Source: an uncultured Sphingomonas sp.
GTDB lineage: Bacteria; Pseudomonadota; Alphaproteobacteria; Sphingomonadales; Sphingomonadaceae
Reading direction: 5' to 3'
DNA length: 64,000 nucleotides
Assembly: GCA_966211615.1 (NCBI GenBank)
Contig: CBIHNZ010000017.1
Coordinates: 22,954 to 86,953, forward strand
This document shows positions 24,209 to 45,163 of the stretch, one piece after another. The translations under genes and the position numbers were made by a program. Within the stretch, counting starts at the first letter, position 1; each line of letters begins with the position of its first letter. The notes beneath the pieces were generated by a model that worked only from the letters and a program-made list of their open reading frames with translations, did not search any database and was not told the DNA's origin.

Positions 24209-25432
24209 GTGATGGCTACGGCCCCCGAAATCGATGTATCGGCGAATGCGCTGGACGCGTTCCGCGCTGCGGCCCGCGCATGGCTCGCCGCGAATTTCCC
24301 GCCGAGCCTGAAGGGCAAGGACAATGCGATGTCGGCGGTGGAAGGGCCGCACGAGAATTCCCCCGAGGAGGATGCCTGGCAGAAGGCGATGGGCGAGAAG
24401 GGCTGGGGCGTGCCGACCTGGCCCGCCGAATATGGCGGCGGCGGCCTTTCCCGCGCCGAGGCGCGCGTGCTGCAGGAGGAGATGGCGCGGATCGGCGCCT
24501 GGAACCCGATCGGCGGCATGGGCGTGATGATGTTCGGGCCGACCCTGCTCGAATATGGCAGCGAGGCGCAGAAGCGCGAGCATATCCCGGCGATCGCCAA
24601 GGGGACGGTGCGCTGGTGCCAGGGCTATTCGGAGCCCGGCGCGGGATCGGACCTGGCGAGCCTGCAGACCTTCGCGGAAGACAAGGGCGATCATTATGTC
24701 GTCAACGGCCAGAAGACCTGGACCAGCGGCGGCCAATGGGCCGACAAATGTTTCATGCTCGTCCGCACGGACAAGTCGAAGAAGCATGAGGGCATCACCT
24801 TCCTGCTCTGCGACATGGACAGCCCGGGCGTCGAGGTGAAGCCGATCCGTCTGATCTCGGGCTCCTCGCCCTTTTGCGAGACCTTCTTCACCGACGTGAA
24901 AGTGCCCAAGGCCAACCGCGTCGGCGAGGAGGGGCAGGGCTGGACGATCGGCAAGCGCCTGCTCCAGCACGAGCGCAACAGCCTGTCGGGCGGCGGATCG
25001 ACGGCGGGGCGGATGTTCGCCGGGCCGCCGCTGGGCCAGATCGCCAAGAAATATGTCGGCACCGACGAGCAGGGCCGGATCGCCGACGCCGATCTGCGCG
25101 CGCGGATCGTGCGGCACGAGATGGACCTGCGCGCCTTCATGCTGACGCTGCGCCGCGCGGCGATGGAGGCCAAGTCCAATCAGGGGCCTTCGGCGACGAC
25201 CTCGATCATGAAGAATGTCGGTGCGCGGATCATGCAGGAGCGCTCCGAGCTGCTGATCGAGATCCGCGGGCTCGCCGGCCTGGGCTGGGAAGGCGAGGGG
25301 TTCAGCGAAGAGGAGCTGCGCGACGTGCGGTCCTGGCTCTTCGGCAAGGCGGTGTCGATCTATGGCGGATCGACCGAGATCCAGAACAACGTGATCGCCA
25401 AGCGCATCCTCGGGATGCTGGATCATCAGTGA
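24209..25432 (+). CDS. Acyl-CoA dehydrogenase, PimC/FadE26-like large subunit
   Basis: WCQGYSEPGAGSDLASL, VVNGQKTWTS, IYGGSTEIQNNVIAKRIL. Confidence 0.93.
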   Translation: MMATAPEIDVSANALDAFRAAARAWLAANFPPSLKGKDNAMSAVEGPHENSPEEDAWQKAMGEKGWGVPTWPAEYGGGGLSRAEARVLQEEMARIGAWNPIGGMGVMMFGPTLLEYGSEAQKREHIPAIAKGTVRWCQGYSEPGAGSDLASLQTFAEDKGDHYVVNGQKTWTSGGQWADKCFMLVRTDKSKKHEGITFLLCDMDSPGVEVKPIRLISGSSPFCETFFTDVKVPKANRVGEEGQGWTIGKRLLQHERNSLSGGGSTAGRMFAGPPLGQIAKKYVGTDEQGRIADADLRARIVRHEMDLRAFMLTLRRAAMEAKSNQGPSATTSIMKNVGARIMQERSELLIEIRGLAGLGWEGEGFSEEELRDVRSWLFGKAVSIYGGSTEIQNNVIAKRILGMLDHQ

Positions 25433-25437
25433 CTGCT

Positions 25438-25554
25438 CTCTCTCTCCCGCTTGCAGGAGAGGGCTGGGGTGAGGGTGAATCCTGGCCCCACACGCTCCGC
25501 TGAAGTTTGTACGACGCACCCTCACCCCGACCCTCTCCCGCGGGCGGGAGAGGG
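25438..25554. repeat. CCCTC-type palindromic intergenic repeat (CIR/REP-like), copy 1
   Basis: CTCTCCCGC..GGAGAGGG.GGGGTGAGGGT / ACCCTCACCCC.ACCCTCTCCCGC..GGGAGAGGG inverted arms; GANTC at 25477. Confidence 0.85.
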
Positions 25555-25569
25555 GGAAGGAAGAAGAAG

Positions 25570-26637
25570 ATGGCGATCCTGACCGAAGAACAGACGATAC
25601 TGCGCGACATGGCGCGCGAATGGGCGGACAATGAAGCGCCCGTCACCGCCTTTCGCAGGATGCGCGATGCCGCGCCCGCCGCCTTCTACGACACCGATGC
25701 GTGGCGCGCCCAGGCGGAGATGGGCTGGGCGGGCATATTGGTGCCTGAGGCGCAGGGCGGCGTGGGGATGGGCTATCTCTCGCTCGGCCTGGTGCTCGAG
25801 CAGCTCGGCCGCACCCTGACCGCCACGCCGCTGGCGGCGACGGCGGCGGCGACCAGCGCGATCCTGCTCGGCGGATCGGAGAAGCTACAGGCCGAATGGT
25901 TGCCGCGCATCGCCACGGGCGAAGTCGTCGCGACGCTGGCGATCGACGAGGGGCCGCGCTTCGCGCCCGATCGCATCGCGACCGAGGCCAGCGGCGGCCG
26001 CATCACCGGCACCAAGGAATTCGTCGCCGAGGGCAACAGCGCGCAGCTCTTCGTCGTGGCGGCGAAGGACGGTCTGTATCTGGTCTCGGGCGAGGAAGGC
26101 GTGACGCGATCCCCGCGCCGGCTGACCGATTCCCGCAGCCATGCGCAGGTGCGGTTCGACAATGCGCCGGCCGGGAAACTGGAGGGCCGCGCCGACCTGC
26201 TGGCTGCGGTGACCGATCGTGCGGCGGCCGCAGCGTGCGCCGAGATGCTGGGCATGGCCGAGGCGGCGTTCGCGCAGACCAACGACTATCTGAAGACGCG
26301 CGTCCAGTTCGGCCAGCTGCTCGCCTCGTTCCAGGCGCTGCAGCATCGCATGGCCCGGATGTTCACCGAGCTCGAACTGATGCGCTCGGTGGTCGAGGGT
26401 GCGTTCGAGGCGATCGATGCCGATCGCGACGTCAGCCAGGCGGTGAGTCTGGCCAAGGCCGTCGCCGGGGAGACGTTGCAGCTGGTCAGCCGCGAGATGG
26501 TCCAGCTTCACGGCGGCATCGGCATGACCGACGAGCATGATGCCGGCTTCTATCTCAAGCGCGCCAGGGTACTCGAGGCGATGTGGGGCAATGCGGCCTG
26601 GCATCGCGAGCGCTTCGCGCGGCTGAACGGCTACTGA
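25570..26637 (+). CDS. Acyl-CoA dehydrogenase, PimD/FadE27-like small subunit
   Basis: MAILTEEQ, RVQFGQLLASFQALQHR, QLHGGIGMTDEH. Confidence 0.92.
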   Translation: MAILTEEQTILRDMAREWADNEAPVTAFRRMRDAAPAAFYDTDAWRAQAEMGWAGILVPEAQGGVGMGYLSLGLVLEQLGRTLTATPLAATAAATSAILLGGSEKLQAEWLPRIATGEVVATLAIDEGPRFAPDRIATEASGGRITGTKEFVAEGNSAQLFVVAAKDGLYLVSGEEGVTRSPRRLTDSRSHAQVRFDNAPAGKLEGRADLLAAVTDRAAAAACAEMLGMAEAAFAQTNDYLKTRVQFGQLLASFQALQHRMARMFTELELMRSVVEGAFEAIDADRDVSQAVSLAKAVAGETLQLVSREMVQLHGGIGMTDEHDAGFYLKRARVLEAMWGNAAWHRERFARLNGY

Positions 26638-30247: not shown

Positions 30248-31525
30248 TCAGGCGCCCAGCACCGTATCGTCGAACAGTCCGAACGCGAGCGTCGACGCGT
30301 AAAAGGCCACAGCCTTTTCGCGCGGCATCGTGCTCGCCCATTTGCGCATGTCGAAGGCGGCGTTCTGGAGCGCCATCAGCGCCTGCGACGCGACCAGCGG
30401 ATCGATCGGGCGGATCGATCCTTCCGCGATACCGTCCGACAGCATGCCGGCGAAACGACGGGCGATGCGGTTCGAGCGGTCGATCATCGTGTTGCGCACG
30501 CGCGGCGGCAGGCCGGAGAGCGCCGTGGTGCGCAGCAGCGGGCCGCGTTCCGAGAACTGCACGTCGAGCAACGTCGCGATCGTGCTTTCCAGCCGCTCCC
30601 AATGCGATCCCCGGTGGTTCTCGGCCAGGCGCTGCGCATCGGCGATGATGTCGAAGCTGCGCTTGTAGCAGGCGGTGACCAGCTCGTCCTTGGCATCGAG
30701 ATGGTGGTAGAAGCTGCCCTTGGTGACGTTGAGTTCGGAGGCGATGCGCTGGACAGATGCGCCGCGATAGCCGAGCTCGTTGATCAGCCGCGTCGCCGCC
30801 AGCAGGAAAGCGTCGCGGCCAGGCTCGGGCTCGTCATGCTCCAGGTCGAGCAGCTCGGGCTGCCATTTCTGGCCCGGGCCGGCGATGCCGTGGCGGAACA
30901 CGTCCATCAGCCTCTGCTCGACGCGCGGATATTCGTCGATCTCGTACCGGGTCAGCCAGGCGGTGAGCCAGAAGGTATTCTCGAGCACGACATGCGCGCG
31001 CGCGCCGCGCAGATCGGTTTCGGCGCGGGTGCCCTCGGCGCCCCAGAGGCTGCGCGTCTTGCGGAAGATGTTGCGCCAGCCGGTGAGCAGCTGGCTCTTC
31101 ATCGGCTCCTCCATCGCGCGGAGATCCGAGAGGATGGCGAAGGCCTGTTCCTCGCCGCGCTGGATGCGCGCGAGCCGTTCCATGTTGATGTTGAGGAAGC
31201 GGGCGACGCGCGTCTCGGGCGTCGGCTCGGTCAGCGCCTGGTCGAGCATCTCGTCGAGCCGCTCGAGCGTCTGCTCGAACGCGGCGGCGGCAAGGTCTTC
31301 CTTGCGCTTGAAATAATAGGTGACGCTGGTCGTGTTGAGGCCGACGCGCCGTGCGACATCGGCGAAGGTCATGCCCTTCGCGCTCTGCTCGTTGATCGCA
31401 TCGGCGGCGGCGGACAGGATCGCGTCGCGCTTCGCCTGGAAGCGTTTGGTACCCTTTTCGGGCGCAATGGCCTCCGATTCCTGGGCGACTGTCTCCGGCA
31501 CGTTCATGTCATCCAGCTTACTCAT
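30248..31525 (-). CDS. Tandem double-domain TetR/AcrR regulator
   Basis: Two HTH units: [33 protein letters not shown] and [32 protein letters not shown]. Start uncertain (MSKLDD chosen). Confidence 0.88.
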
Positions 31526-31614: not shown

Positions 31615-31630
31615 TACCGAATATCCGGTA
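31615..31630. promoter_or_regulatory. Candidate TetR operator
   Basis: TACCG-AATATC-CGGTA palindrome in the divergent tetR/ACAD intergenic region. Confidence 0.4.
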
Positions 31631-31670: not shown

Positions 31671-32954
31671 ATGGACTTCACGCTGACCGAGCGCGAGACC
31701 TATTTCCGCGATCGCGTGAAGACGTTCATCGACACGCGGATCCGGCCTCGCGACGCCGATTATCGCGCCGAGGCGCATAGCGGCGACCGGTGGAAGGTAA
31801 ACCGGGTGCTGGAGGAAGTGAAGGCCCAGGCCAAGGCCGAGGGGCTATGGAATTTCTTCATGCCGCCGCATTCGGGCCAAGCCCATGTCGACGACAGCTT
31901 CGCGTTCGAAGGCACCCAACTCACCAATCTCGAATATGCGCTGTGCGCCGAGGAGATGGGACGGGTCGGCTGGGCTTCCGAAGTGTTCAACTGCTCGGCA
32001 CCCGACACCGGCAACATGGAAGTGCTGCATCGGTACGGCACCCGTGCGCAGAAGGACCGCTGGCTCATGCCGCTGATGGAGGGCGAGATCCGATCGGCCT
32101 TCCTGATGACCGAACCGGCGGTGGCATCGTCCGACGCGACCAATATCGAGACGCGGATCGAGCGTGACGGCGGCGACTATGTGATCAACGGCCGGAAATG
32201 GTGGTCCTCGGGTACCGGCGATCCGCGCTGCGCGATCGCGATCGTGATGGGCAAGACCAATCCCGACGCTGCCCGCCACGCCCAGCAGAGCCAGGTCCTG
32301 GTGCCGCTCGACGCGCCGGGCGTGAAGATCGAGCGGATGCTTTCGGTTTTCGGGTATGATCACGCGCCGCATGGGCATGGCGAGGTCCTGCTCGAAAATG
32401 TGCGCGTGCCGGCCGAGAATGTCCTGTTGGGGGAGGGACGCGGCTTCGAGATCGCGCAGGGCCGGCTGGGGCCGGGGCGCATCCACCATTGCATGCGCAC
32501 GATCGGCGTGGCGGAGGAAGCGATCGAGGCGATGGCCAAGCGGCTCGTCAGCCGCGTCGCGTTCGGCAAGCGCATTTCGGACCACTCGATCTGGGAACAG
32601 CGGATCGCCCGGGCACGGATCGACATCGAGATGACCCGGCTGCTGTGCCTCAAGGCGGCCGATATGATGGACAAGGCGGGCAACAAGGCCGCCCAGCTCG
32701 AGATCGCGATGATCAAGGTGCAAGCGCCGACCATGGCGCTGCAGATCATCGACGACGCGATCCAGGCGCATGGCGGCGCCGGCGTCTCCAGCGACTTCCA
32801 TCTGGCGCATGACTGGGCGGGCATCCGCACGCTGCGGTTGGCCGATGGGCCCGACGAGGTCCACAACCGCGCGATCGCGCGGGCGGAGTTCGGGAAATAC
32901 GGTGACTATAAGGCCGATCGGGTCTCCAGCGGCGAGATCGGGGCGAGCCGCTAG
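31671..32954 (+). CDS. Acyl-CoA dehydrogenase, ACAD10/11 (LvaC)-like
   Basis: [56 protein letters not shown]. Confidence 0.93.
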
Positions 32955-32957
32955 TTC

Positions 32958-33043
32958 CGTCATCCCGGCACAGGCCGGGATCCAGAGCCAAGCAGAACCG
33001 TCCGAGCAAGGAAACCCTGGATCCCGGCCTGCGCCGGGATGAC
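32958..33043 (+). repeat. CGTC-type REP doublet (REPIN-like), copy 1
   Basis: CGTCATCCCGGC..GCCGGGATCCAGAGCCAA...CCTGGATCCCGGC..GCCGGGATGAC. Confidence 0.88.
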
Positions 33044-33059
33044 AAGGAGAGAAGGTGGA

Positions 33060-34145
33060 ATGAAGGCCGCAGTTCTTCACGAAGCGAGGTCGCCGCTCCA
33101 GATCGAGGAGGTTTCGATCTCCAAGCCCGGTCCCCGCGAGGTGCTGATCCGCACCGCGGCGGTGGGAGTCTGCCGGTCGGACCTGCATTTCGTCGACGGC
33201 GCCTTTCCGCATCCGGTGCCGACCGTGCCGGGACACGAGGCGGCGGGGTTGATCGAGGCTGTGGGGAGCGACGTCGCGCATCTGAAGCCGGGCGATCATG
33301 TCATCACCTTCTTCACGGTATTCTGCGGCAGCTGCGAGATGTGTGTCACCGGGCGGCCGTCGCTGTGCATCGACCCGTCGACGCGGCGCCCGGCCGATGC
33401 CGAGCCGCGGCTGCGCCTGGCGGACGGGCGGCCGCTGGCGCCGTTCCTCAATCTCTCCGCCTTTGCCGAGATGATGCTCGTGCATGAGAATGCCTGCGTG
33501 GCGATCTCGAAGGAGATGCCGCTCGACCGCGCGGCGCTGCTCGGCTGCGCGGTGATCACCGGCGCGGGGGCGGTGTTCAACGACAGCCGGGTGCGACCGG
33601 GCGAGAGCGTCGCGGTGATCGGCGCGGGCGGGATCGGACTGGCGGCGATCAATGCGGCCAAGATCGCCGGAGCGGGGGCGATCCTGGCGATCGATCCGAT
33701 GCCAGAGAAACGCGAGCTGGCGCTCAAGCTGGGCGCGACGCAGGCGCTAGATCCGAGCTCCGAGACGATCGTCAAGGACGTGCTCAAGCTGACCGACGGC
33801 GGCGTGCATTATGCGATCGAGGCGGTGGGGCGGTCGAACACCGCCGAACTCGCCTGGAACATCCTGCGCCGCGGCGGCACCGCGACGATCCTGGGGATGA
33901 TCGCGCCGGGGAACAGCGTCAGCCTGCCCGGGCCGACCTTCCTGACAGGCAGGAAGATCCAGGGATCGCTGCTGGGCTCGACCCGCTTCCCGATCGACAT
34001 GCCGCGCCTCGTCCAGATGTATCTCGACGGGCTGCTCGATCTCGACACGATGGTGGCCGAACGGATCACGCTGGGCGAGGTCAACGACGCGCTGGAGAAG
34101 CTCCGCCAGGGGCACAGCGTGCGTTCGGTGATCGAATTCGCATGA
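33060..34145 (+). CDS. Zn-dependent alcohol dehydrogenase (class III-like MDR)
   Basis: GVCRSD, PGHEAAG, CGSCEMC, VIGAGGIG. Confidence 0.93.
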   Translation: MKAAVLHEARSPLQIEEVSISKPGPREVLIRTAAVGVCRSDLHFVDGAFPHPVPTVPGHEAAGLIEAVGSDVAHLKPGDHVITFFTVFCGSCEMCVTGRPSLCIDPSTRRPADAEPRLRLADGRPLAPFLNLSAFAEMMLVHENACVAISKEMPLDRAALLGCAVITGAGAVFNDSRVRPGESVAVIGAGGIGLAAINAAKIAGAGAILAIDPMPEKRELALKLGATQALDPSSETIVKDVLKLTDGGVHYAIEAVGRSNTAELAWNILRRGGTATILGMIAPGNSVSLPGPTFLTGRKIQGSLLGSTRFPIDMPRLVQMYLDGLLDLDTMVAERITLGEVNDALEKLRQGHSVRSVIEFA

Positions 34146-35191
34146 GCGACGATCTCGCCCCTGTGCCGGCGGACGACCCGATCGACATCGCGGCGCTCGA
34201 ACGCTGGATGAAGACGCGGATGCCGGACTTTGTCGGGCCGATCCGGCTCGACAAGTTCAAGGGCGGCCAATCCAACCCGACCTATCGCGTGGATACGCCA
34301 GGCAAGAGCTATGTGCTGCGCCGCCAGCCCTTCGGCCAGCTGCTGCCGTCGGCGCATGCGGTCGACCGCGAATACCGGCTGATCGCGGCATTGCATCCCA
34401 CCGGCTTCCCGGTGCCCAAGCCCTATTTCGGGCTGTGCGCGGACGATTCGGTGATCGGGTCGATGTTCTATGTGATGGAACTGGTGGAGGGTCGGACCTT
34501 CTGGGACGGATCGCTGCCGGGCATGGCTCCGGCCCAGCGTACCGCGCATTATGAAGCGATCATCGATACGCTGGCGGCGCTGCACTCGATCGACGCCGAG
34601 GCGGTGGGCCTTGGCGACTATGGCAAGCCGGGCAATTATTTCGAGCGGCAGGTGGCACGCTGGTCGAAGCAGTACCGGATGAGCCAGACCGACGACCTGC
34701 CCGAGATGGAGCGGCTGATCGAGTGGCTGCCGCGCACCGTGCCCGAGCAGACGCGCACGGCCATCGTCCATGGCGATTTCCGCATCGACAACATGATCTT
34801 CGCGCCGCACGAACCGCGCATCCTGGCGGTGCTCGACTGGGAGCTGTCGACTCTGGGCGATCCGCTGGCGGACTTTTCCTATTTCCTGATGAGCTGGGTG
34901 ACCCAGCCCGAGGGACGTTCGGGCGTGAAGGGGCTGACCGGGCAACACACCGGCATCCCGACGATCGAGGATGTGGTCGTGCGCTATTGCGCCGCGACGA
35001 AGCGGGACGGGGTGCCCGATCTCAACTGGTACTTCGCCTATAACCTGTTCCGGCTCGCGGGCATCGTCCAGGGGATCAAGAAGCGGATGCTCGACGGCAA
35101 TGCGTCGAGCGCGCAGGCGGCGGCAACGGTCGAGCGGATGCCGGGGCTGGTCGCGTCGGCCTGGAGTTTCGCGGAGGAGGCGGGAGCATGA
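34142..35191 (+). CDS. APH-family phosphotransferase (ACAD10/11 kinase domain, LvaA-like)
   Basis: [41 protein letters not shown]. Confidence 0.92.
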
Positions 35192-35955
35192 CGGTGTTAT
35201 TCGACCTGACCGGCAAGGTCGCGATCGTCACCGGATCGACGCGCGGGATCGGCCGCGCGGCGGCGGAGGCGCTGGCGGAGCATGGCGCCAAGGTCGTCAT
35301 CTCGAGCCGCAAGCAGGACGCGTGCGACGAGGCCGCGGCAGAGATCGACGCGCGGTTCGGCGCGGGCACGGCGCTCGCGGTGGCGGCGAGCATCTCCGAC
35401 AAGGCGGCGCTCCAGAACCTGGTCGATCAGACGCGGCGCGCGTTCGGGCGCATCGACGTGCTTGTCTGCAACGCGGCCTCCAATCCCTATTACGGGCCGC
35501 TGGCGGACATCGCCGACGAGCAGTTCCGCAAGATCCTCGACAACAACATCGTCTCCAACCACTGGCTGATCCAGATGGTGGCCCCCGAGATGCGGGCGCG
35601 GCGCGAGGGATCGATCGTGATCGTCTCGTCCATCGGAGGGTTGCGCGGTTCGGCCCAACTCGGCGCCTATTGCGTCTCCAAGGCCGCGGACATGCAGCTG
35701 GCGCGCAACTATGCGGTCGAGTTCGGGCCGGACAATGTACGGGTCAACTGCATCGCGCCGGGCCTTATCAAGACCGATTTCGCGCGGGCGCTGTGGGAGG
35801 ATCCCGAGCGGATCAAGGCGACCAATTCGACCACGCCGCTGCGTCGGATCGGCGAGCCGGAGGAGATCGCCGGCGCGGTGGTATATCTGGCGAGCAGGGC
35901 CAGCACGTTCATGACGGGGCAGGCGATGGTGATCGACGGCGGAGTGACGATCTGA
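35188..35955 (+). CDS. Short-chain dehydrogenase/reductase
   Basis: [28 protein letters not shown]. Confidence 0.93.
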
Positions 35956-36755
35956 TGCGGTTTTCAGGCAAGGTAGCGATCGTCACCGGCGCGGGTTCGG
36001 GCATCGGCCGGGCGACGACGCGGGCGTTCGCGGCAGAGGGGGCAAAGGTCGTCGCGGCCGACCTGAGCGAGGCGGTGCACGAGACGGTCGCGGGGCTCGG
36101 CATCGCGGCGATCGACAGCACCGTCGCCGTGCAGATGGATGCCGGCGACGAAGGCGATGTCGAGCGGCTGGTGGCGACCGCATGCGAGCGGTTCGGCGGG
36201 CTCGATATCTTCCATGCCAATGCCGGAATTTCGGGGGGCGCCGACGGGATCTTCGATTCCTCGGTCGAACTGTGGACCGAAGTGCTGCGGGTGAACCTGA
36301 TCGGGCCGTTCCTGGCGATCAAGCATGGCGCGCCGAAGATCGTCGATCGGGGCGGCGGCGCGATCGTGTGCACCGCCAGCGTCGCGGGGCTGCGATCGGG
36401 CGCCGGCGGGCCGGCCTATTCGGCGAGCAAGGCCGGCGTCATCAACCTGGTGCAGACCGCTGCGCAGCAGCTTTCGACGTCGAATGTGCGGGTCAACGCG
36501 ATCTGTCCCGGGCTGATCGAGACGGGCATGACCCAGCGGGCGTTCGACTATGCGCGCGAGGCGGGCAAGCAGGACAAGCTCGGCCAGCTCAATCCGCTGC
36601 GCCGCGCCGGCATTCCCGACGAGATCGCGCGCGTGGCGCTGTTCCTGGCGTCGGACGAGGCGAGCTATGTCAACGGCCAGGCCTGGGTGGTGGATGGCGG
36701 GCTTTCGTCGAGCCATCCGGTTACGCGGCAGATGTTCGGCAAGACCTCGTTCTGA
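35955..36755 (+). CDS. Short-chain dehydrogenase/reductase
   Basis: [27 protein letters not shown]; TGATG overlap with the upstream SDR. Confidence 0.93.
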
Positions 36756-36808: not shown

Positions 36809-37561
36809 ATGCGCAGCATCCTTAAGGGGCTGATACTCGGTTCGTTGCTGGTCGTGGCGGCCACGCCCGCGTTGGCGCAGGACGAGGGGCAGGAGATCGT
36901 CGTCACCGGATCGTTCCGCAAGCTGGCGGGCAATGGCGACGATGAGGATCGCGTACCTGAATTGATCGCCTCGCGTCCGGCCGCGGCGCTGACGATGCGC
37001 CGCACCGCAGATTTCGCCGTCCAGCAGGTGACGATCGGCGGCGACACGCGCGAGGAGGGCAAAAGGCGCGAGGAAATCTATACGATGACGCGCAAGGCGA
37101 TCGAGCTGGCCGGCAAATATGGCGTCCAGCTCGCCACCGGCGAACTGGTCATCGAGCCGCTTACGCTGGCCAACTACAAGAACCTCATCGTCACCGAGGA
37201 TGAAGACCAGAACGAGGCGGAGCTGGTGACCTTCGTCGTCAAGACGCCGCTGGCGCCGGGGACGGACTCCAAGACCGCGCTCGAGCGCATATCCAAGTTC
37301 ATCGCCGAAGTGCCGCCCGTCGGGCGGGCAGAGCTCAAGGCGCGGAGCCAGCTGGCGCTGAGCGTGGTCAATCCGGAGCAATATCGCCGGCCGATCATCG
37401 CGCAGATCGCCAAGGAGGCCGCGGCGACGAGCGCACCGTTCGGCGCCGGCTATGGCGTCGAGGTGACCGGGCTGGAGCGGCCGGTGCAATGGACGCAGGC
37501 GAGTCTCACCGAGGTGCTGCTCTATCTGCCCGCCACCTATACCGTGCGCCCGCACGATTGA
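36809..37561 (+). CDS. Exported hypothetical protein with TonB-box-like N-terminus (possibly SIMPL-like), paralog 1
   Basis: Signal peptide, then QEIVVTGS; clearly homologous to the next ORF. Confidence 0.75.
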   Translation: MRSILKGLILGSLLVVAATPALAQDEGQEIVVTGSFRKLAGNGDDEDRVPELIASRPAAALTMRRTADFAVQQVTIGGDTREEGKRREEIYTMTRKAIELAGKYGVQLATGELVIEPLTLANYKNLIVTEDEDQNEAELVTFVVKTPLAPGTDSKTALERISKFIAEVPPVGRAELKARSQLALSVVNPEQYRRPIIAQIAKEAAATSAPFGAGYGVEVTGLERPVQWTQASLTEVLLYLPATYTVRPHD

Positions 37562-37575
37562 GCCAGCAGGGGGGA

Positions 37576-38307
37576 ATGCACATGCTTTTCAGGAGTCTGC
37601 TCGCCACGGCTGCGATCTGCGCGGCGCTTCCGGCAGCCGCGCAGGAAATAGCGGTCACCGGCCAGTACCGCGCGGGCTACACCGCCGCGGAACCTTATGG
37701 CGTGGTGGCGCAGGGGCCGCAGCAATACCGGCCGGTCGTGGTCCTGAAGCGGACCGCGGACTATGTCGTGCAGGCGGTTCGCGTGGTCGGCGACACGCGG
37801 GACGCGGCCAAGCGGCGCGAGGAAGTCTATGGCATGGTGCGCAACGCGATCCAGCTGTCCGCGAAATCGGGCGTCGAGCTTTCGACCGGCGAGCTCGTGC
37901 TCGAGCCGCTGACCCTTGCCAATTATACCAACCTGCCGCTGCGCTCCGCCGGGCGGCCGGACACCGACCAGGCGGTCTTCCTGGTCAAGACCAGGCTCGC
38001 GCCCGGCGTGGACGCCAAGGTGGCGCTCGACCGGATCAGCAAGTTCGTCGCCGCGGTGGCGAATGTCGCGCGCGCCGAGATGGAGACGATCGGCGATCCG
38101 ACGCTGTCGGTGATCGATCCCAACCAGTATCGCGGCCAGATCATCGAGCTGATCGCTGCAGATGCGGCGTCGACCGCAGGCAAGTTCGGCGCGGGCTATG
38201 GCATTCGGGCGGAGGGGCTCGACCGGCCGGTGCAATGGGCGCGCGCCAGCCTGACGGAGATTTTCCTCTATCTGCCCGCCAGCTATGCCGTGGTGCCCAA
38301 GCCGTAA
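37576..38307 (+). CDS. Exported hypothetical protein, paralog 2
   Basis: QEIAVTGQ; shares RTAD, GDTR, KRREE, TGELV.EPLTLANY, PVQW..ASLTE..LYLPA.Y with paralog 1. Confidence 0.75.
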   Translation: MHMLFRSLLATAAICAALPAAAQEIAVTGQYRAGYTAAEPYGVVAQGPQQYRPVVVLKRTADYVVQAVRVVGDTRDAAKRREEVYGMVRNAIQLSAKSGVELSTGELVLEPLTLANYTNLPLRSAGRPDTDQAVFLVKTRLAPGVDAKVALDRISKFVAAVANVARAEMETIGDPTLSVIDPNQYRGQIIELIAADAASTAGKFGAGYGIRAEGLDRPVQWARASLTEIFLYLPASYAVVPKP

Positions 38308-38310
38308 GCC

Positions 38311-39210
38311 CTAGAGCTCGCGCTTGACCCGGATCAGCCCTTCCTGCGCGGCGCTGGCGACCAGCCGGCCGTCGCGGGAATAGATGCGGCCGCGGTTGAA
38401 GCCGCGAGAATGGCCGGACCAGGGGCTGTCGGTGGTGTAGAGCAGCCATTCGTCGAAGCGGAACGGCTCGTGAAGCCACACGGCATGGTCGAGGCTGGCG
38501 GTCTGGATGTTGCCGGTCATCCAGCTCACCCCGTGCGGCAGCATGCAGGTGCCGAGCAGGGTCATGTCGGTGGCATAGGCGAGCATCGCGCGGTGGAGCG
38601 CGGGATCGTCGGGCAGGGGCGCCGCGACCTTGAACCAGCTGTGCTGGACGGGCTCGGTCGGTTCGGGGCGGAACCAGTTGCGGGGGCTGACCGGGCGGAT
38701 CTCGATCGGGCGGGCGCGCAGGAAGAAGCGGCGGAGCTTCTCGGGCACCTGGGCCTGGATCTCGTCGCGTAGCTCGCTCTCCGAGCGCAGCGCTTCGGGA
38801 GGCGGCACGTCCGGCATCGATTCCTGGTGGTGCAACCCCTCGGCAGGCAGCTGGAACGAGGCCGCCATATTGAGGATCGGCTGGCCCTTCTGCATCGCGA
38901 TCACGCGCCGCGTGGCGAAGCTGCGCCCCTCGAAATCGCGGACCACGCGGTAGATGATCGGGTGATTCTCGTCGCCCGGCCGCATGAAATAGGCATGGAG
39001 CGAATGGGCGGCCTTGCCGTCCTCGACCGAGCGCTGCGCTGCCTGGAGCGCCTGGGCGATGACCTGGCCGCCGAACACGCGACCGACGCCGCCCGGCTGC
39101 CGCGCGCCGCGGTAGAGATCGGTGTCGATCTCCTCGACGTCGAGCAGCGCGATGAGCTGTTCGACCAGCGCCTCGGGCGTGGTGGCGCGTTCGGGATTGT
39201 CTTGCGTCAT
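38311..39210 (-). CDS. tesB: Acyl-CoA thioesterase II
   Basis: GRVFGGQVIAQAL, HSLHAYF, AYATDMTLL, ASLDHAVW, ASAAQEGL. Confidence 0.93.
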   Translation of the reverse strand: MTQDNPERATTPEALVEQLIALLDVEEIDTDLYRGARQPGGVGRVFGGQVIAQALQAAQRSVEDGKAAHSLHAYFMRPGDENHPIIYRVVRDFEGRSFATRRVIAMQKGQPILNMAASFQLPAEGLHHQESMPDVPPPEALRSESELRDEIQAQVPEKLRRFFLRARPIEIRPVSPRNWFRPEPTEPVQHSWFKVAAPLPDDPALHRAMLAYATDMTLLGTCMLPHGVSWMTGNIQTASLDHAVWLHEPFRFDEWLLYTTDSPWSGHSRGFNRGRIYSRDGRLVASAAQEGLIRVKREL

Positions 39211-40334
39211 CAATAGCCTGCCGCTTCGGCCAGCGCGTTGGCGTGGTAATTGGCGTCGCCGAACAACTCGGCCAGGACGCGGGCCCGCTTCATGAAGAAG
39301 CCGATATCATATTCGTCGGTCATGCCGATGCCGCCATGCATCTGGATGCCCTCCTGCACCGCCAGGGTGGTGGCCATGCCGGTCATCGCCTTGGCGACCG
39401 AGACCGCCTGGGTGGCGTCCTCCCCCGCGTCGAGCAGCTGCTGGGCCTTGAGGACTGCGGCGCGGGCGACCTCGAGTTCGGAATAGAGGTGGGCGGCGCG
39501 GTGCTGGAGCGCCTGGAAGCTACCGATCGCCACGCCGAACTGCTTGCGTTCCTTGAGATAATGCACCGTCATCGCCATGGCGCCGCCGCCGACGCCGAGT
39601 AGCTCGGCCGAGGCGCCGGTGCGGGCGGCGCGGAGCAGGCGGGCGAGGGGATCGGCACCGGCATCGACCTCGCCGACCACGGTATCGGAGTTTACTTCGA
39701 CGTCCGCGAAGGTTGCGCGGGACGCCAGGCTGGAATCGGCCAGGCGCTGGGGATCGAGGGTGAGGCCCGCCGATTTCGGGTCGATCGCGAACAGCGTGAT
39801 TCCCGAACTTTCCGCTTCGGAGCCCGAAGTGCGGGCGGTCACCAGGATCAGGTCGGCGGCATGGGCGTGATGCGCGAAACACTTGGTGCCGGAGAGGCGG
39901 AAGCCGTTGCCCGAACGCTCCGCTTTCAGCGCGACGCGCCCCGTGAACTTCGGCGTCTCTTCCGTCGCGAGTGCGACTACCGTCTCGCCGGCGAGGATGC
40001 CGGGGAACCAGCGCGCGGCATGGGCCGTGCCCTTGAGCGCCTCGACCGCGGCGACGGCGGTGGTGAGGAAGGGGGAGGGACTGAGATTGCGGCCGATTTC
40101 CTCGAGCACCACGCCCGCCTCGACATGGCCGAGGCCGAGGCCGCCATCGCTCTCGGGGATCAGGATGCCGGTAAGACCGAGTTCGGCGAACTGCTTCCAC
40201 AGCTCGCGGCTGAACCCGGTTTCATCCCTTGCATCGCGAAGTTGGCGCAGATGGCCGACCGGCGCGTGCTCGGCGATGAAATCGCGGGCGGTTTCCTGGA
40301 GCAGGGTCTGGTCGTCGGTGAGGTAGAGGGGCAT
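39210..40334 (-). CDS. Acyl-CoA dehydrogenase, PimD/FadE27-like small subunit
   Basis: MPLYLTDDQ, RKQFGVAIGSFQALQHR, QMHGGIGMTDEYD. Confidence 0.92.
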   Translation of the reverse strand: MPLYLTDDQTLLQETARDFIAEHAPVGHLRQLRDARDETGFSRELWKQFAELGLTGILIPESDGGLGLGHVEAGVVLEEIGRNLSPSPFLTTAVAAVEALKGTAHAARWFPGILAGETVVALATEETPKFTGRVALKAERSGNGFRLSGTKCFAHHAHAADLILVTARTSGSEAESSGITLFAIDPKSAGLTLDPQRLADSSLASRATFADVEVNSDTVVGEVDAGADPLARLLRAARTGASAELLGVGGGAMAMTVHYLKERKQFGVAIGSFQALQHRAAHLYSELEVARAAVLKAQQLLDAGEDATQAVSVAKAMTGMATTLAVQEGIQMHGGIGMTDEYDIGFFMKRARVLAELFGDANYHANALAEAAGY

Positions 40335-40357
40335 TTTCTTCTTCCTTTCCCTCTTCT

Positions 40358-40471
40358 CCCTCTCCCGCTTGCGGGAGAGGGCCGGGGTGAGGGTGAGTCG
40401 CGTCAATTCAAGTCGGTCGAGTGAGGCCAGCTCGCACCCTCACCCAACCCTCTCCCGCAGGCGGGAGAGGG
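40358..40471. repeat. CCCTC-type palindromic intergenic repeat, copy 2
   Basis: Same arms as the 25438 copy; GANTC at 40395 in the equivalent position. Confidence 0.88.
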
Positions 40472-40481
40472 CTAAGAAGGC

Positions 40482-41666
40482 TTAGGAGGGTAGATCGAGG
40501 ATACGCTTGGCGATGATGTTGAGCTGGATCTCGCTGGTGCCGCCTTCGATCGAATTGGCTTTGGTACGGAGCCAGGCGCGGGGCTTGGCGCCGCCCTGCG
40601 AGGCCTTGCTATCCCATTCGAGTGCCTCGCTGCCGCCCGCGGCCATGACCAGCTCGTGACGGGCCTTGTTCAGCTCGGTGCCGTAATATTTCATCATCGA
40701 GGGCTGGGCGGGATGGGCGCGGCCGGCCTTGAGCTCGTCGATGAAGCGCTCGGACATCGCCGCGAAGGCGCGGGCGCGTACTTCGAAGACCGCAATGTTC
40801 GCCCGGAGCAGCGGATCGGCAAGCCGGCCCGCGTCGTCGCGGCCGATCGTGCGACAAGCGTCGTCGACCAGCACATTGCCGCCGCCACCGCCAAGACCCA
40901 TGCCCGAGATCATCTCGCGCTCATGGCCGAGCAGGTACTTGGCGACGTCCCAGCCCTTGTTGAGCTCGCCGAGCAGATTCGCCTTGGGCACCTTCACATT
41001 GTCGAAGAACGTCTCGCAGAAGGGCGAATAGCCCGAGATCAGCAGGATCGGCCTGGTCGAGACGCCCTCGCTCGCCATGTCGAACAGCAGGAAGCTGATA
41101 CCGCCCTGCTTGGTGCTCTTGTCGGTGCGGACGAGGCAGAAGATCCAGTCGGCCTGGTCGGCATAGCTGGTCCAGACCTTCTGGCCGTTGACGACGAAAT
41201 GGTCGCCGGCATCTTCCGCCGAAGTTTGCAGCCCGGCGAGGTCGGAACCGGCATTGGGCTCGGAATAGCCCTGGCACCAGCGGATCTCGCCGCGCGCGAT
41301 CCTGGGCAGATGATCGAGCTTCTGCTCCTCGCTGCCATATTTGAGCAGCGCCGGCCCGAGCATCGAGATGCCGAAGCTGTTGAGCGGATTGCGGCACTGG
41401 AGCCGCGCCATCTCCTCGCGCAGGATCTTGGTCTCGGCCGGGCTGAGCCCGCCGCCGCCATAGGCCCTGGGCCAATCGGGCACCGTCCAGCCGCGCGCGC
41501 CCATCCGGTCCATCCAGAGCTTCTGGTCGGGATGGGCATAGACCGGGTTGCGACCGCCCCAGGTCGCGTCCTTCTCGCCGCGCGCGGGGGTGCGCATCGC
41601 GGGGGGACAGTTTTCCTCGAGCCAGGCGCGGGTTTCGAGGCGGAATGCGGTGAGGTCTTCGGTCAT
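40482..41666 (-). CDS. Acyl-CoA dehydrogenase, PimC/FadE26-like large subunit
   Basis: WCQGYSEPNAGSDL, NGQKVWTS, IEGGTSEIQLNIIAKRIL. Confidence 0.93.
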   Translation of the reverse strand: MTEDLTAFRLETRAWLEENCPPAMRTPARGEKDATWGGRNPVYAHPDQKLWMDRMGARGWTVPDWPRAYGGGGLSPAETKILREEMARLQCRNPLNSFGISMLGPALLKYGSEEQKLDHLPRIARGEIRWCQGYSEPNAGSDLAGLQTSAEDAGDHFVVNGQKVWTSYADQADWIFCLVRTDKSTKQGGISFLLFDMASEGVSTRPILLISGYSPFCETFFDNVKVPKANLLGELNKGWDVAKYLLGHEREMISGMGLGGGGGNVLVDDACRTIGRDDAGRLADPLLRANIAVFEVRARAFAAMSERFIDELKAGRAHPAQPSMMKYYGTELNKARHELVMAAGGSEALEWDSKASQGGAKPRAWLRTKANSIEGGTSEIQLNIIAKRILDLPS

Positions 41667-41684
41667 CCTCTCTCGTCCTTCTAG

Positions 41685-41797
41685 CCCTCTCCCGCTTGCG
41701 GGAGAGGGTTGGGTGAGGGTGTGTAGCGCGCCCCAGGCGTGTCGCCTGTTGATCGGACACACCCTCACCCCGACCCTCTCCCGCAGGCGGGAGAGGG
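41685..41797. repeat. CCCTC-type palindromic intergenic repeat, copy 3
   Basis: CCCTCTCCCGCTTGCGGGAGAGGGTTGGGTGAGGGT...ACCCTCACCCCGACCCTCTCCCGCAGGCGGGAGAGGG. Confidence 0.88.
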
Positions 41798-41806
41798 AGA
41801 TTTGGG

Positions 41807-43831
41807 TCACTTGTTGAACTTCTCGCCCTTCTCGGCCTTTTCGCGGAGCAGGGGGGCGACCTCGAAGCCGTGCTTCTCGAGGCCCGCGACGATCTTCTTG
41901 AGGCCCTCGGTATCGGCCCAGAACATCGGGCCGCCGCGATAGACCGGCCAGCCATAGCCGTAGATCCACACCACATCGATGTCCGACGCGCGCTGGGCCA
42001 TGCCCTCGGCGAGGATCAGCGCGCCTTCGTTGACCATCGGATAGAGGGTGCGCTCGACGATCTCCTCGTCGGTGATCGCGTGCTGCGCGGCGCCGGTCTG
42101 TTTGCGGAAATCCTCGATGATCTCGGCGACGCGCGGGGAGGGCGAGGGGTTCCGCTTCTCGTCATAGTCGTAGAAGCCCTTGCCGGTCTTCTGGCCCCAG
42201 CGGCCCTCGGCCGCGAGCGCGTCACGGATATTCTCGATGCGGGTGGGGTCGCGGTGCCAGCCGATATCGACGCCGGCGAGGTCGCTCATCTGGAACGGGC
42301 CCATCGGCATGCCGAACGCGACATGGACCTTGTCGATCTGCTCGGGCGTGGCGCCCTCCATCAGCAGCTTCATCGCCTCGACCTGGCGCGGCATCAGCAT
42401 GCGGTTGCCGATAAAGCCGTGGCAGACGCCGGCGACCACGGCGACCTTCTTGATCTTCTTCGAGATCGCCATGGCGGTGGCCAGCACGTCATCGGCGGTC
42501 CTGGCGCCGCGGACGATCTCGAGCAGCTTCATGATATTGGCCGGCGAGAAGAAGTGGAGGCCGAGCACGTCCTGCGGGCGCGAGGTGCTGGCAGCGATCT
42601 CGTCCACGTTGAGGTAGGAGGTGTTGGAGGCGAGGATCGCGCCGGGCTTGGCGATCCTGTCGAGCCGTCCGAAGACCTCCTTCTTGACGTCCATGCTCTC
42701 ATAGACCGCCTCGATGATCAGGTCGCACTCGGCGAGATCGTCGAAGTTGAGCGTCGGCTTGAGCAGCCCCATCGCGCCCTCGACCTGCTCGGCGGTCATG
42801 CGGCCCTTGGCGGCGGTCGCCTCGTAATTCTTGCGGATCGTGCCGGTGCCGCGGGTCAGCGCCTCCTCGGCCATCTCGACGATCGTAACGGGGACGCCGG
42901 CCGACAGGAAGTTCATCGAGATGCCGCCGCCCATCGTGCCGGCGCCGATCACGCCGACGCGCTTGATGTCGCGCAGCTGGATGTCCTCGGGGATGCCGTC
43001 GATCTTCGACGCCTTGCGCTCGGCGAAGAAGATGTGGCGCAGCGCCGCCGACTGGGTACCCATGATCAGCTTCATGAAGCCCATCCGCTCGGCCTGGACG
43101 CCCTCGGCATAGGGCTTGCCGGCGGTCTGCTCGATCAGGTCGATGATCGTCGCGGGCGCCTCGAAGCCGCGGAAGCGCTTGGCGTTGGTCTTGCGGAAAT
43201 TCTCGAACACCGCCGGATCGACGGTGACCGGGCGCTCGCTGGAGCGCGAGATCGGCTTGCCCACGACGTCGTTGGCGAAGGCGACGGCGTCCGCGAGCAG
43301 GCTGTTCTCGCCCGCCAGGCGATCGACCAGCCCGGCGGCCTGGGCCTGGGCGGCCGAGACCGGGTCGCCCTTGGCGGCCAGTTCGAGCGCGAACTCGACG
43401 CCCGCGACGCGCGGCATGCGCTGGGTGCCGCCGGCGCCGGGCAGGATGCCGAGCTTGACCTCGGGCAGGCCGAACTTCGCCGATGGGACGGCGATGCGAT
43501 AATGGCTGGCGAGCGCGACCTCGCAGCCGCCGCCGAGCGCGGTGCCGTGGATCGCCGCTATGACCGGCTTGTCGAGCGCCTCGATCGCGTCGACCAGCAC
43601 GGGCAGCGAGGGCTCCTGCATCGGCTTGCCGAATTCGGTGATGTCGGCGCCGGCGAAGAAGGTCTTGCCGGCGCAGGTGATGACGACGGCCTTGATGCTG
43701 TCATCGTTCCTGGCTTCCTCGATCCCGGCCTGCAGGCCCTGGCGGACCGCAGCGCCGAGCGCGTTCACCGGCGGATTGTCCGAGGTGAGGATCAGGACGT
43801 CGCCCTGGCGGCTGGTGGTAATCACGGACAT
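41807..43831 (-). CDS. Bifunctional enoyl-CoA hydratase/3-hydroxyacyl-CoA dehydrogenase (FadN/PimF-like)
   Basis: [60 protein letters not shown]. Confidence 0.95.
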
Positions 43832-43942: not shown

Positions 43943-45163
43943 TCAGGTGAGAGCCGAATAGATCAAGGTCTTGAGCTCGCGGCGGATCGGGTAGGTTGTG
44001 GACGGCGAGAATTGCGTCATGAAGACCATCGTGATCCGTTCGACCGGATCGATGAAGAAGGCGGTCGAGAACATCCCGCCCCAATAATATTCGCCCGACG
44101 AGCCCGGCAGCATCGACTTGGCGACGTCCATGGTGATGGCGAAGCCCAGGCCGAAGCCGGTGCCGGCATTGGTCGTCTCGCTGAACAGCGAGCGCGACAT
44201 GTGATTGAGGTCAGAACCGCCGGGCAGATGGTTCATCGTCATCAGGTCGACGGTCTTGCGGCTGACCAGCCGAACGCCCTCCAGTTCGCCGCCGTTGAGG
44301 AAGAAGGTGTTGAAGCGGTGATAGTCGAGCGCCGAGGAGACAAGGCCGCCGCCGCCCGAGACCAGGCGGGGGAAGCGCGACCAGGCCGAGGCCGCGCCGC
44401 GATCGTACAGCACGCGCGCGCCGCCCGGGGCCAGCGTCCAGCAATCGGCGAGACGGTCGATCTTGTCCTCGGGCACCTGGAAGAAGGTGTCGTGCATGCC
44501 GAGCGGTTCGAGGATGCGCTCGGCGAAGAAGCGGTCGAGGCTCTGGCCCGAGACGCGCTGGACCACCGCGCCGAGCACGTCGGTCGAGACCGAATAATTC
44601 CATTCGTCGCCGGGCGAGAATTCGAGCGGGAGCCTGCCGAGCGCGGCGACGAACTCGTCGAGCGTCAGATTGCCGTGCCAGCTCTCCATCTTGGAGTCGC
44701 GATAGGCGGCGTCGATCGGCGTGCGGTCCTGGAAGCCATAGGTGAGGCCCGAGGTGTGGCGGAGCAGATCGATCATCCGCATCGGGCTGGCGGTCGGCCG
44801 GGTCTCGAAGGGTGCGCCGCTGCCGCCGCCGGCATAGACGCCGATGCCCTTGAATTCGGGCAGGACATGATGGACCGGCGTGTCGAGCGCGACCTTGCCC
44901 TCCTCCAGCAGCATCATGAAGGCGAGGCTGGTGATCGGCTTGGTCATCGAGGCGATGCGGAACAGGGTGGTGTGATCGACCGGCGCGCCGCCCTCGCGGG
45001 CCGGGCCCTGGTGCGAGAAATGGACAATCCGCCCGCCGCGCGCGATCAACAGCTGGGCATGGGGGAGCCGGCCCGAATCGAGATAGCGCTCCTTCACAAA
45101 ACTATCGATCCGCGCAAGCCGGACGCTGTCGAATCCCTCGCTCTCGGGGCTGGCGATCTTCAT
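43943..45163 (-). CDS. Serine hydrolase (beta-lactamase/EstB-like esterase family)
   Basis: SxxK motif ASMTKP, LLRHTSG, YSVS, GGGLVS, WGG. Confidence 0.9.
   Translation of the reverse strand: MKIASPESEGFDSVRLARIDSFVKERYLDSGRLPHAQLLIARGGRIVHFSHQGPAREGGAPVDHTTLFRIASMTKPITSLAFMMLLEEGKVALDTPVHHVLPEFKGIGVYAGGGSGAPFETRPTASPMRMIDLLRHTSGLTYGFQDRTPIDAAYRDSKMESWHGNLTLDEFVAALGRLPLEFSPGDEWNYSVSTDVLGAVVQRVSGQSLDRFFAERILEPLGMHDTFFQVPEDKIDRLADCWTLAPGGARVLYDRGAASAWSRFPRLVSGGGGLVSSALDYHRFNTFFLNGGELEGVRLVSRKTVDLMTMNHLPGGSDLNHMSRSLFSETTNAGTGFGLGFAITMDVAKSMLPGSSGEYYWGGMFSTAFFIDPVERITMVFMTQFSPSTTYPIRRELKTLIYSALT

Follow-up and report, generated by a model that had tools for sequence, protein, structure and literature searches.

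What is achieved by an operon that places a kinase of the aminoglycoside phosphotransferase (APH) fold among acyl-coenzyme A (CoA) and alcohol dehydrogenases? The question is raised by positions 31671-36755 of a 64,000-nucleotide (nt) stretch of DNA from an uncultured Sphingomonas sp. (contig CBIHNZ010000017.1), which was analysed as a whole and is called here the window (GC content ~67%). The open reading frame (ORF) map and Pfam place five genes on the plus strand of this region, coding for an acyl-CoA dehydrogenase-type protein (ACAD), a zinc alcohol dehydrogenase (Zn-ADH), an APH-type kinase and two short-chain dehydrogenases/reductases (SDR1 and SDR2). Judged by homology, these genes probably form a TetR-repressed sphingomonad operon built around a split ACAD10/ACAD11 core, which would act on 4-hydroxyacyl-CoA, together with three accessory dehydrogenases. 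The operon consists of:

31671..32954, plus strand: ACAD, an ACAD10/11/LvaC-type enzyme of the acyl-CoA dehydrogenase fold; predicted 4-phosphoacyl-CoA phosphate eliminase that yields 2-enoyl-CoA
32955..33059, plus strand: inverted-repeat element resembling repetitive extragenic palindromes (REP-like), between ACAD and Zn-ADH
33060..34145, plus strand: Zn-ADH, an NAD-type zinc alcohol dehydrogenase, class I/III-like, not of the glutathione-dependent type
34142..35191, plus strand: APH kinase of the ACAD10/11-type APH fold; predicted 4-hydroxyacyl-CoA 4-kinase
35188..35955, plus strand: SDR1, a DHRS4-like classical SDR with an NADP(H)-type fingerprint; putative 4-oxoacyl-CoA reductase
35955..36755, plus strand: SDR2, a classical SDR with an NAD-type fingerprint; putatively oxidises secondary hydroxyls

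The kinase and ACAD core

The original prediction, made from the letters of the sequence, had taken the APH kinase and the ACAD to be of the LvaA/LvaC and ACAD10/11 type, and sequence, motifs and co-occurrence strongly support this assignment. The window ACAD matched mouse ACAD11 (8v3u) with an E value of 1.8e-134; its identity to the dehydrogenase domain of an animal ACAD10 is 56%. In the alignment it keeps the equivalents of ACAD11 R626, R631, H597 and D753, and of H634 and R637 in the HCMR motif. The HCMR motif and the upstream Arg, which bind the 4-phosphate in ACAD11, are aligned column for column, and the mutagenesis of Rashan et al. revealed that R626, H634 and R637 are required for the conversion of 4-phosphoacyl-CoA by ACAD11 (PMC12440821). 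In ACAD11, D753 stands in for the usual catalytic Glu (PMC12440821), and the equivalent Asp of the window protein (in LADGPDEVH) likewise replaces the canonical ACAD Glu. The HCMR motif was also present in 57 of 80 related loci, namely the ACAD-bearing ones, and in the ACAD of a second module on contig C10 of the same genome (see below).

The kinase matched 3dxp with an E value of 2e-116, the kinase domain of mouse ACAD11 with 8e-78, and the 355-amino acid PDB entry 9o56 with 1e-57. With animal ACAD10 kinase domains it shares 45-49% identity over at least 90% of its length, and it keeps the equivalents of ACAD11 D220, N225, R86 and R176. Alignments with ACAD11 and 3dxp revealed the HGDxxxxN catalytic loop, the DWE metal motif and an Arg by the αC Glu (DREY). 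Before the catalytic loop, FERQV of the window kinase is aligned with CKRQV of ACAD11, so that its Arg corresponds to the CoA-contacting R176. Natural fusions of this kinase family join it to ACAD, enoyl-CoA hydratase, acyl-CoA synthetase, ACBP, histidine phosphatase, patatin and NMO domains; because most of these partners are acyl-CoA enzymes, an acyl-CoA substrate fits the kinase. For LvaA we relied on the identities published in PMC11342911, according to which LvaA shares just 29% with ACAD10/11 kinase domains, compared with up to 51% for other bacterial kinases. Since the window kinase shares 45-49% with ACAD10 against 29% for LvaA, it is, by sequence identity, a member of the ACAD10/11-like clade and not of LvaA's.

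The distribution of the two proteins was analysed in 201 evenly drawn alphaproteobacterial genomes. The kinase was found in 68 genomes and the ACAD in 67, with both in 65; four of the five discordant genomes are only 81-86% complete. A FadB like the one that neighbours the operon was present in 74 of the 201 genomes, 60 of which were also kinase-positive. Because of these counts the kinase/ACAD module appears close to a standard accessory of beta-oxidation in Alphaproteobacteria, with the phospho-elimination route represented in about a third of the sampled genomes and in about four fifths of those with this FadB type. Two tandem, adjacent copies of the kinase family were seen in many Alphaproteobacteria (for example, genome G147, contig C2; G043, C1; G003, C15; G111, C67).

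Gene order, control region and accessory dehydrogenases

The five-gene operon had been described in the original prediction as a coupled set with ATGA and TGATG overlaps among its last four genes. The ORF map and Pfam bear out the genes and the overlaps: 4-nt ATGA overlaps join Zn-ADH to the kinase and the kinase to SDR1, and a 1-nt TGATG overlap joins SDR1 to SDR2. Coupling, however, applies to these four genes and not to the ACAD, which is separated from Zn-ADH by a 105-nt gap (32955-33059) that in RNA folding forms an extended REP-like hairpin (-64.7 kcal/mol, z -7.3). The ACAD starts at an ATG preceded by GGGAGGA, and an alternative in-frame ATG of Zn-ADH, at 33039, lies inside a hairpin arm. 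The hairpin core, GTCATCCCGGC, is a dispersed REP-like repeat with 60 occurrences in the genome, and forms the inverted repeat GTCATCCCGGC...GCCGGGATGAC. This repeat may stabilise or attenuate the mRNA and so allow the ACAD to be expressed independently of the genes that follow. Within the operon, neither a promoter nor a terminator scan yielded a hit above the shuffled background. No small LvaB-like ORF had been visible at first reading, and within the operon this holds, because neither the gene overlaps nor the 105-nt hairpin gap could accommodate an ORF of that size; the rest of the genome was not searched for LvaB by homology.

The gene order was compared in 68 related loci with enough flanking sequence. 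The full ACAD-ADH-kinase-SDR1-SDR2 order was found in 31 loci, from Sphingomonas, Sphingopyxis, Sphingorhabdus and Blastomonas, and partial sets in 24 more, from which we conclude that the arrangement is not due to chance. SDR1 was absent from 8 loci, both SDRs from 6 (Novosphingobium), ADH from 7, and SDR2 together with ADH from 3, whereas the kinase stood alone in 13, mostly from Caulobacterales. Since many loci lack one or more of them, the accessory genes can be considered modular.

Two features of the control region lie upstream of the operon:

30248..31525, minus strand: tandem TetR-family regulator of 425 amino acids with two TetR_N helix-turn-helix domains (Pfam PF00440 in two stretches, plus TetR_C_24)
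31615..31630, no strand assigned: palindrome TACCGAATATCCGGTA, candidate TetR operator, overlapping the operon promoter region

The regulator carries its tandem TetR domains in a single chain, is divergent from the operon, and is 70-88% identical in Sphingomonas-type loci. The palindrome TACCGAATATCCGGTA is located 41 nt ahead of the ACAD start, and an alignment of 31 orthologous intergenic regions revealed an invariant core, CTTTACCGAA..GGTA, around it. TACCGAATATCCGGTA is probably the operator of a local repressor. A wider TetR regulon was considered and rejected, as exact matches to the operator occur once in the window and twice in the 5.26-Mb genome; with so few sites, the regulator probably acts locally.

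The top three PDB matches of SDR1 were DHRS4 from three animals (E values of 2e-57, 2e-55 and 7e-44); the next SDR family followed at 1.6e-42, and all bacterial SDR structures ranked behind DHRS4. SDR1 has an NADP-type SSRKQ after β2, its YxxxK motif as YCVSK, and the Ser-Tyr-Lys triad, and is the one of the two SDRs in the operon to bear an NADPH fingerprint. With a threshold of E ≤ 1e-55, SDR1 was found in 60 of the 201 genomes, that is, in 55 of the 68 kinase-positive and in 5 of the 133 kinase-negative ones. This co-occurrence was set aside as evidence, since the FadB control traced it largely to general beta-oxidation capacity, and we relied instead on physical adjacency. SDR1-like genes lie within ~3 kb of the kinase or the ACAD in ~10 genomes of different alphaproteobacterial families, and in several other genomes an SDR1-like gene adjoins FadB in the same cluster. 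One metagenomic kinase-SDR1 fusion was also detected (kinase 68% and SDR1 77% identical), a single sequence that could be a frameshift artefact.

SDR2 (Pfam adh_short) has an NAD-type AADLS after β2 and a YSASK motif, and its best PDB matches were PtmO8 and BacC-like proteins. It was found in 14 of the 201 genomes, all of them kinase-positive, and adjoins an ACAD11-like gene in one other family. Zn-ADH (Pfam ADH_N and ADH_zinc_N) matched class III and class I ADHs best among PDB entries (E values of 1e-74 to 1e-70). Its catalytic (C38, H59, C163) and structural (C89, C92, C95, C103) zinc ligands are kept, and the NAD fingerprint AIDP was read from the translation; it lacks the equivalent of the class III Asp57 and scored under every NCBIfam cut-off. 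Linkage of Zn-ADH to the kinase was observed only within the family to which the window belongs. Outside Sphingomonadales, the five regions inspected, three of them annotated, gave no clue to ADH function, the neighbours being heterogeneous (an SDR, a metallo-beta-lactamase, TauD, a protein kinase and housekeeping genes). Zn-ADH and SDR2 are Sphingomonadales-specific additions to the module. Across Sphingomonas loci the identity of the ADH is bimodal (76-92% versus 58-66%) while that of the ACAD and the kinase is similar, which suggests that the ADH was replaced or exchanged at the same operon position.

Proposed mechanism and rival explanations

Close homology to assayed enzymes predicts the two central steps. 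The APH-fold kinase would phosphorylate the 4-hydroxyl of 4-hydroxyacyl-CoA to give 4-phosphoacyl-CoA, from which the atypical ACAD, with a redox-active FAD, would eliminate phosphate to yield 2-enoyl-CoA. This product would then be consumed by the enzymes of the surrounding beta-oxidation genes (FadB, two-subunit ACADs, TesB and acyl-CoA synthetases). SDR1 most likely reduces 4-oxoacyl-CoA to 4-hydroxyacyl-CoA with NADPH, as LvaD does, and the NAD-type SDR2 and Zn-ADH most likely oxidise hydroxyls of the incoming substrates. They could oxidise a disfavoured 4-hydroxy stereoisomer to the 4-oxo form, to be reduced again by SDR1, or else a terminal or other alcohol group. Given that ACAD10 has a preference for the R form (PMC11342911), a stereoinversion of 4-hydroxyacyl-CoA via the 4-oxo form would be in keeping with the contrasting cofactor fingerprints of the two SDRs. 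The substrates are probably medium- and long-chain 4-hydroxy- and 4-oxoacyl-CoAs, produced as beta-oxidation shortens hydroxylated or oxidised lipids; the longer 4-hydroxy/4-oxo acids, lactones and diols named in the original prediction are plausible.

Several observations weigh against this scheme. The functions of the operon proteins are assigned from homology, and the sequence does not fix the chain length of the substrate. Each accessory gene is individually dispensable, and an obligate SDR1/SDR2 pair is disfavoured because some loci keep only one SDR. The phyletic link between SDR1 and the kinase is confounded, in that FadB, kinase, ACAD and SDR1 share largely the same genomes. From the reviews checked, DHRS4 is not known to use CoA esters as substrates. 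A known link of DHRS4 to 4-oxo lipid products was likewise sought and found unsupported in those reviews, one of which assigns the reduction of 4-oxononenal to CBR1 only. Finally, a preprint describes acetyl-CoA-stimulated 1-O-alkylglycerol kinase activity for ACAD10 kinase domains and several prokaryotic homologues (10.1101/2025.09.10.675409).

This last finding opens the possibility that the kinase is mainly an ether-lipid (1-O-alkylglycerol) kinase, in an operon that handles lipid alcohols or glyceryl ethers and uses the ADH and the SDRs to oxidise them. The match of the window kinase to 9o56 and the presence of three alcohol/carbonyl oxidoreductases would agree with such a role, but the kinase co-occurs almost perfectly with an HCMR-motif, phosphate-eliminating ACAD, is naturally fused to acyl-CoA enzymes, and keeps the CoA-contacting Arg residues of ACAD11. 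Sphingomonads are not known as ether-lipid makers. The preprint itself leaves open how the alkylglycerol activity relates to that on 4-hydroxyacyl-CoA (10.1101/2025.09.10.675409). Since the kinase is so closely paired with a phosphate-eliminating ACAD, and its fusions are of the acyl-CoA type, we consider alkylglycerol phosphorylation a minor reading here, and quite improbable as the main function.

It is no more probable that the operon serves a short-chain pathway of the lva type, for levulinate or 4-hydroxyvalerate, rather than medium- and long-chain 4-hydroxy acids derived from lipids. The enzyme classes are the same as those of LvaA, LvaC and LvaD, and C5/C6 compounds serve as substrates in vitro for ACAD10/11 as well as for the Burkholderia pair (PMC12440821, PMC11342911). 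Against this, the operon has no LvaE-type ligase, no LvaB and no sigma-54 LvaR, its kinase shares 45-49% with ACAD10, far more than the reported 29% of LvaA, and it is set in an island of long-chain beta-oxidation genes that includes those for a TonB receptor, TesB and a FadD-like synthetase. That the genes are merely an accessory beta-oxidation cluster of a generic kind, with a conventional desaturating dehydrogenase as the ACAD and an unrelated small-molecule or antibiotic kinase, is extremely unlikely: the Pfam and NCBIfam names are generic only, but the ACAD has the Asp of ACAD10/11 instead of the canonical Glu together with the phosphate-binding Arg/His cluster, ACAD10/11 are inactive on ordinary acyl-CoAs (PMC12440821), and aminoglycoside kinase models match very weakly (27.6 bits against a cut-off of 205).

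Surroundings, second module and known systems

The preferred reading, a split ACAD10/11-type operon for 4-hydroxyacyl-CoA, agrees in kind with its neighbourhood, a lipid-oxidation island with two ACAD pairs, a TonB-dependent receptor, TesB, FadB, a serine hydrolase and two acyl-CoA synthetases. Among the neighbours are:

24209-26637, plus strand: adjacent ACAD pair, PimC/PimD-like, far under the PimC/PimD family cut-offs
36809-37561 and 37576-38307, plus strand: tandem pair of paralogues (50% identity), each with a signal peptide and without a Pfam match, directly after SDR2
39210-41969, minus strand: adjacent ACAD pair, PimC/PimD-like, far under the PimC/PimD family cut-offs
43943-45163, minus strand: beta-lactamase-fold serine hydrolase, directly downstream of FadB, in a convergent unit

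The AMP-binding genes closest to the operon lie 8.5 kb and 10.6 kb away, in separate transcription units. The beta-lactamase-fold hydrolase could be an esterase or a lactonase for the same substrates. The secreted proteins at 36809-38307 were considered as operon members and rejected, as only the three closest relatives (L006, L010 and L011) have them.

The same genome carries a second kinase/ACAD module, on contig C10 (locus L005, 6820-11906), which the original prediction, sound in its core reading of the operon, had overlooked. Its kinase is 54% and its ACAD 70% identical to those of the window, with the same motifs. The partners differ: the C10 module has a 618-amino acid ACAD and an SDR similar to the (3R)-hydroxyacyl-CoA dehydrogenase of peroxisomal MFE-2 (2et6, E 2.6e-113), adjoins a LysR regulator and a P450 gene, and lacks both the Zn-ADH and the DHRS4-like SDR. 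When the family was sampled with one genome per genus, the kinase was found in 46 of 61 genomes. Most of these had either the window type (~56% identity or more) or the C10 type (~50-55%), and a few had both.

The recurrence of a DHRS4-like gene beside the kinase and the ACAD leads to a broader proposal, namely that the DHRS4-like NADPH-type SDR is the dedicated 4-oxoacyl-CoA reductase of ACAD10/11-type modules across Alphaproteobacteria, and that here it inverts stereochemistry together with SDR2. We regard this as rather unlikely. If it were true, one would expect peroxisomal DHRS4 to partner peroxisomal ACAD11 in the mammalian catabolism of 4-oxo and 4-hydroxy acids, and the MFE-2-type SDR of the C10 module would likewise suggest a common origin of peroxisomal lipid enzymes. 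The recurring neighbour is a cheap and testable lead on the missing 4-oxo-acid step of mammals. The locus itself would show that sphingomonads have built a regulated operon with extra dehydrogenases around the phospho-elimination route. It also offers a compact TetR-controlled gene set, with a candidate operator, for work on the catabolism of gamma-lactones, hydroxy-fatty acids and levulinate-type compounds.

The chemistry of ACAD10/11 on 4-hydroxyacyl-CoA has been demonstrated in vitro (PMC12440821, PMC11342911). The residues of mammalian ACAD10/ACAD11 (8v3u, 8v3v, 2wbi) that mutagenesis or modelling has marked as important are all conserved in the window proteins. The mammalian proteins, in contrast, are single chains that combine the two domains and are directed to organelles, and ACAD10 has in addition an HAD phosphatase; in the window the two activities are predicted from separate genes, with the ADH gene between them.

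The P. putida lva operon, as the work of Rand et al. 2017 is relayed in PMC12440821 and PMC11342911, consists of LvaA, B, C, D and E. As far as that account goes, it shares the logic proposed here: an SDR converts 4-oxo- to 4-hydroxyacyl-CoA, the kinase phosphorylates it and the ACAD eliminates phosphate. The window operon differs in that it has neither LvaB, the LvaE ligase nor LvaR, carries a Zn-ADH and a second SDR, is adjoined by a TetR-type regulator, and has a kinase from a clade other than that of P. putida LvaA. By every sequence test the locus falls within the ACAD10/11-LvaA/C system; since the LvaB, LvaE and LvaR features are absent, we group it with the split pairs of the ACAD10/11 type rather than with lva operons.

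Another close published likeness is the B. pseudomallei pair, which also consists of a separate kinase and ACAD of the ACAD10/11-like clade. Paquay et al. 2024 reported that this split kinase (Q63VL0) and ACAD (Q63VL1) replace both ACAD10 activities in vitro without LvaB (PMC11342911). The label 'LvaB-independent variant', given to the operon in the original prediction, thus stands as a description, but not as a novelty. Relative to the B. pseudomallei pair, the window operon has the extra Zn-ADH and two SDRs, the ADH gene between ACAD and kinase, and the tandem-TetR regulator. The core chemistry is already established in bacteria and in mammals; the features that belong to this locus are the conserved sphingomonad gene order, the operator of the tandem TetR, the occurrence of two modules in one genome and the DHRS4-like gene that recurs nearby.

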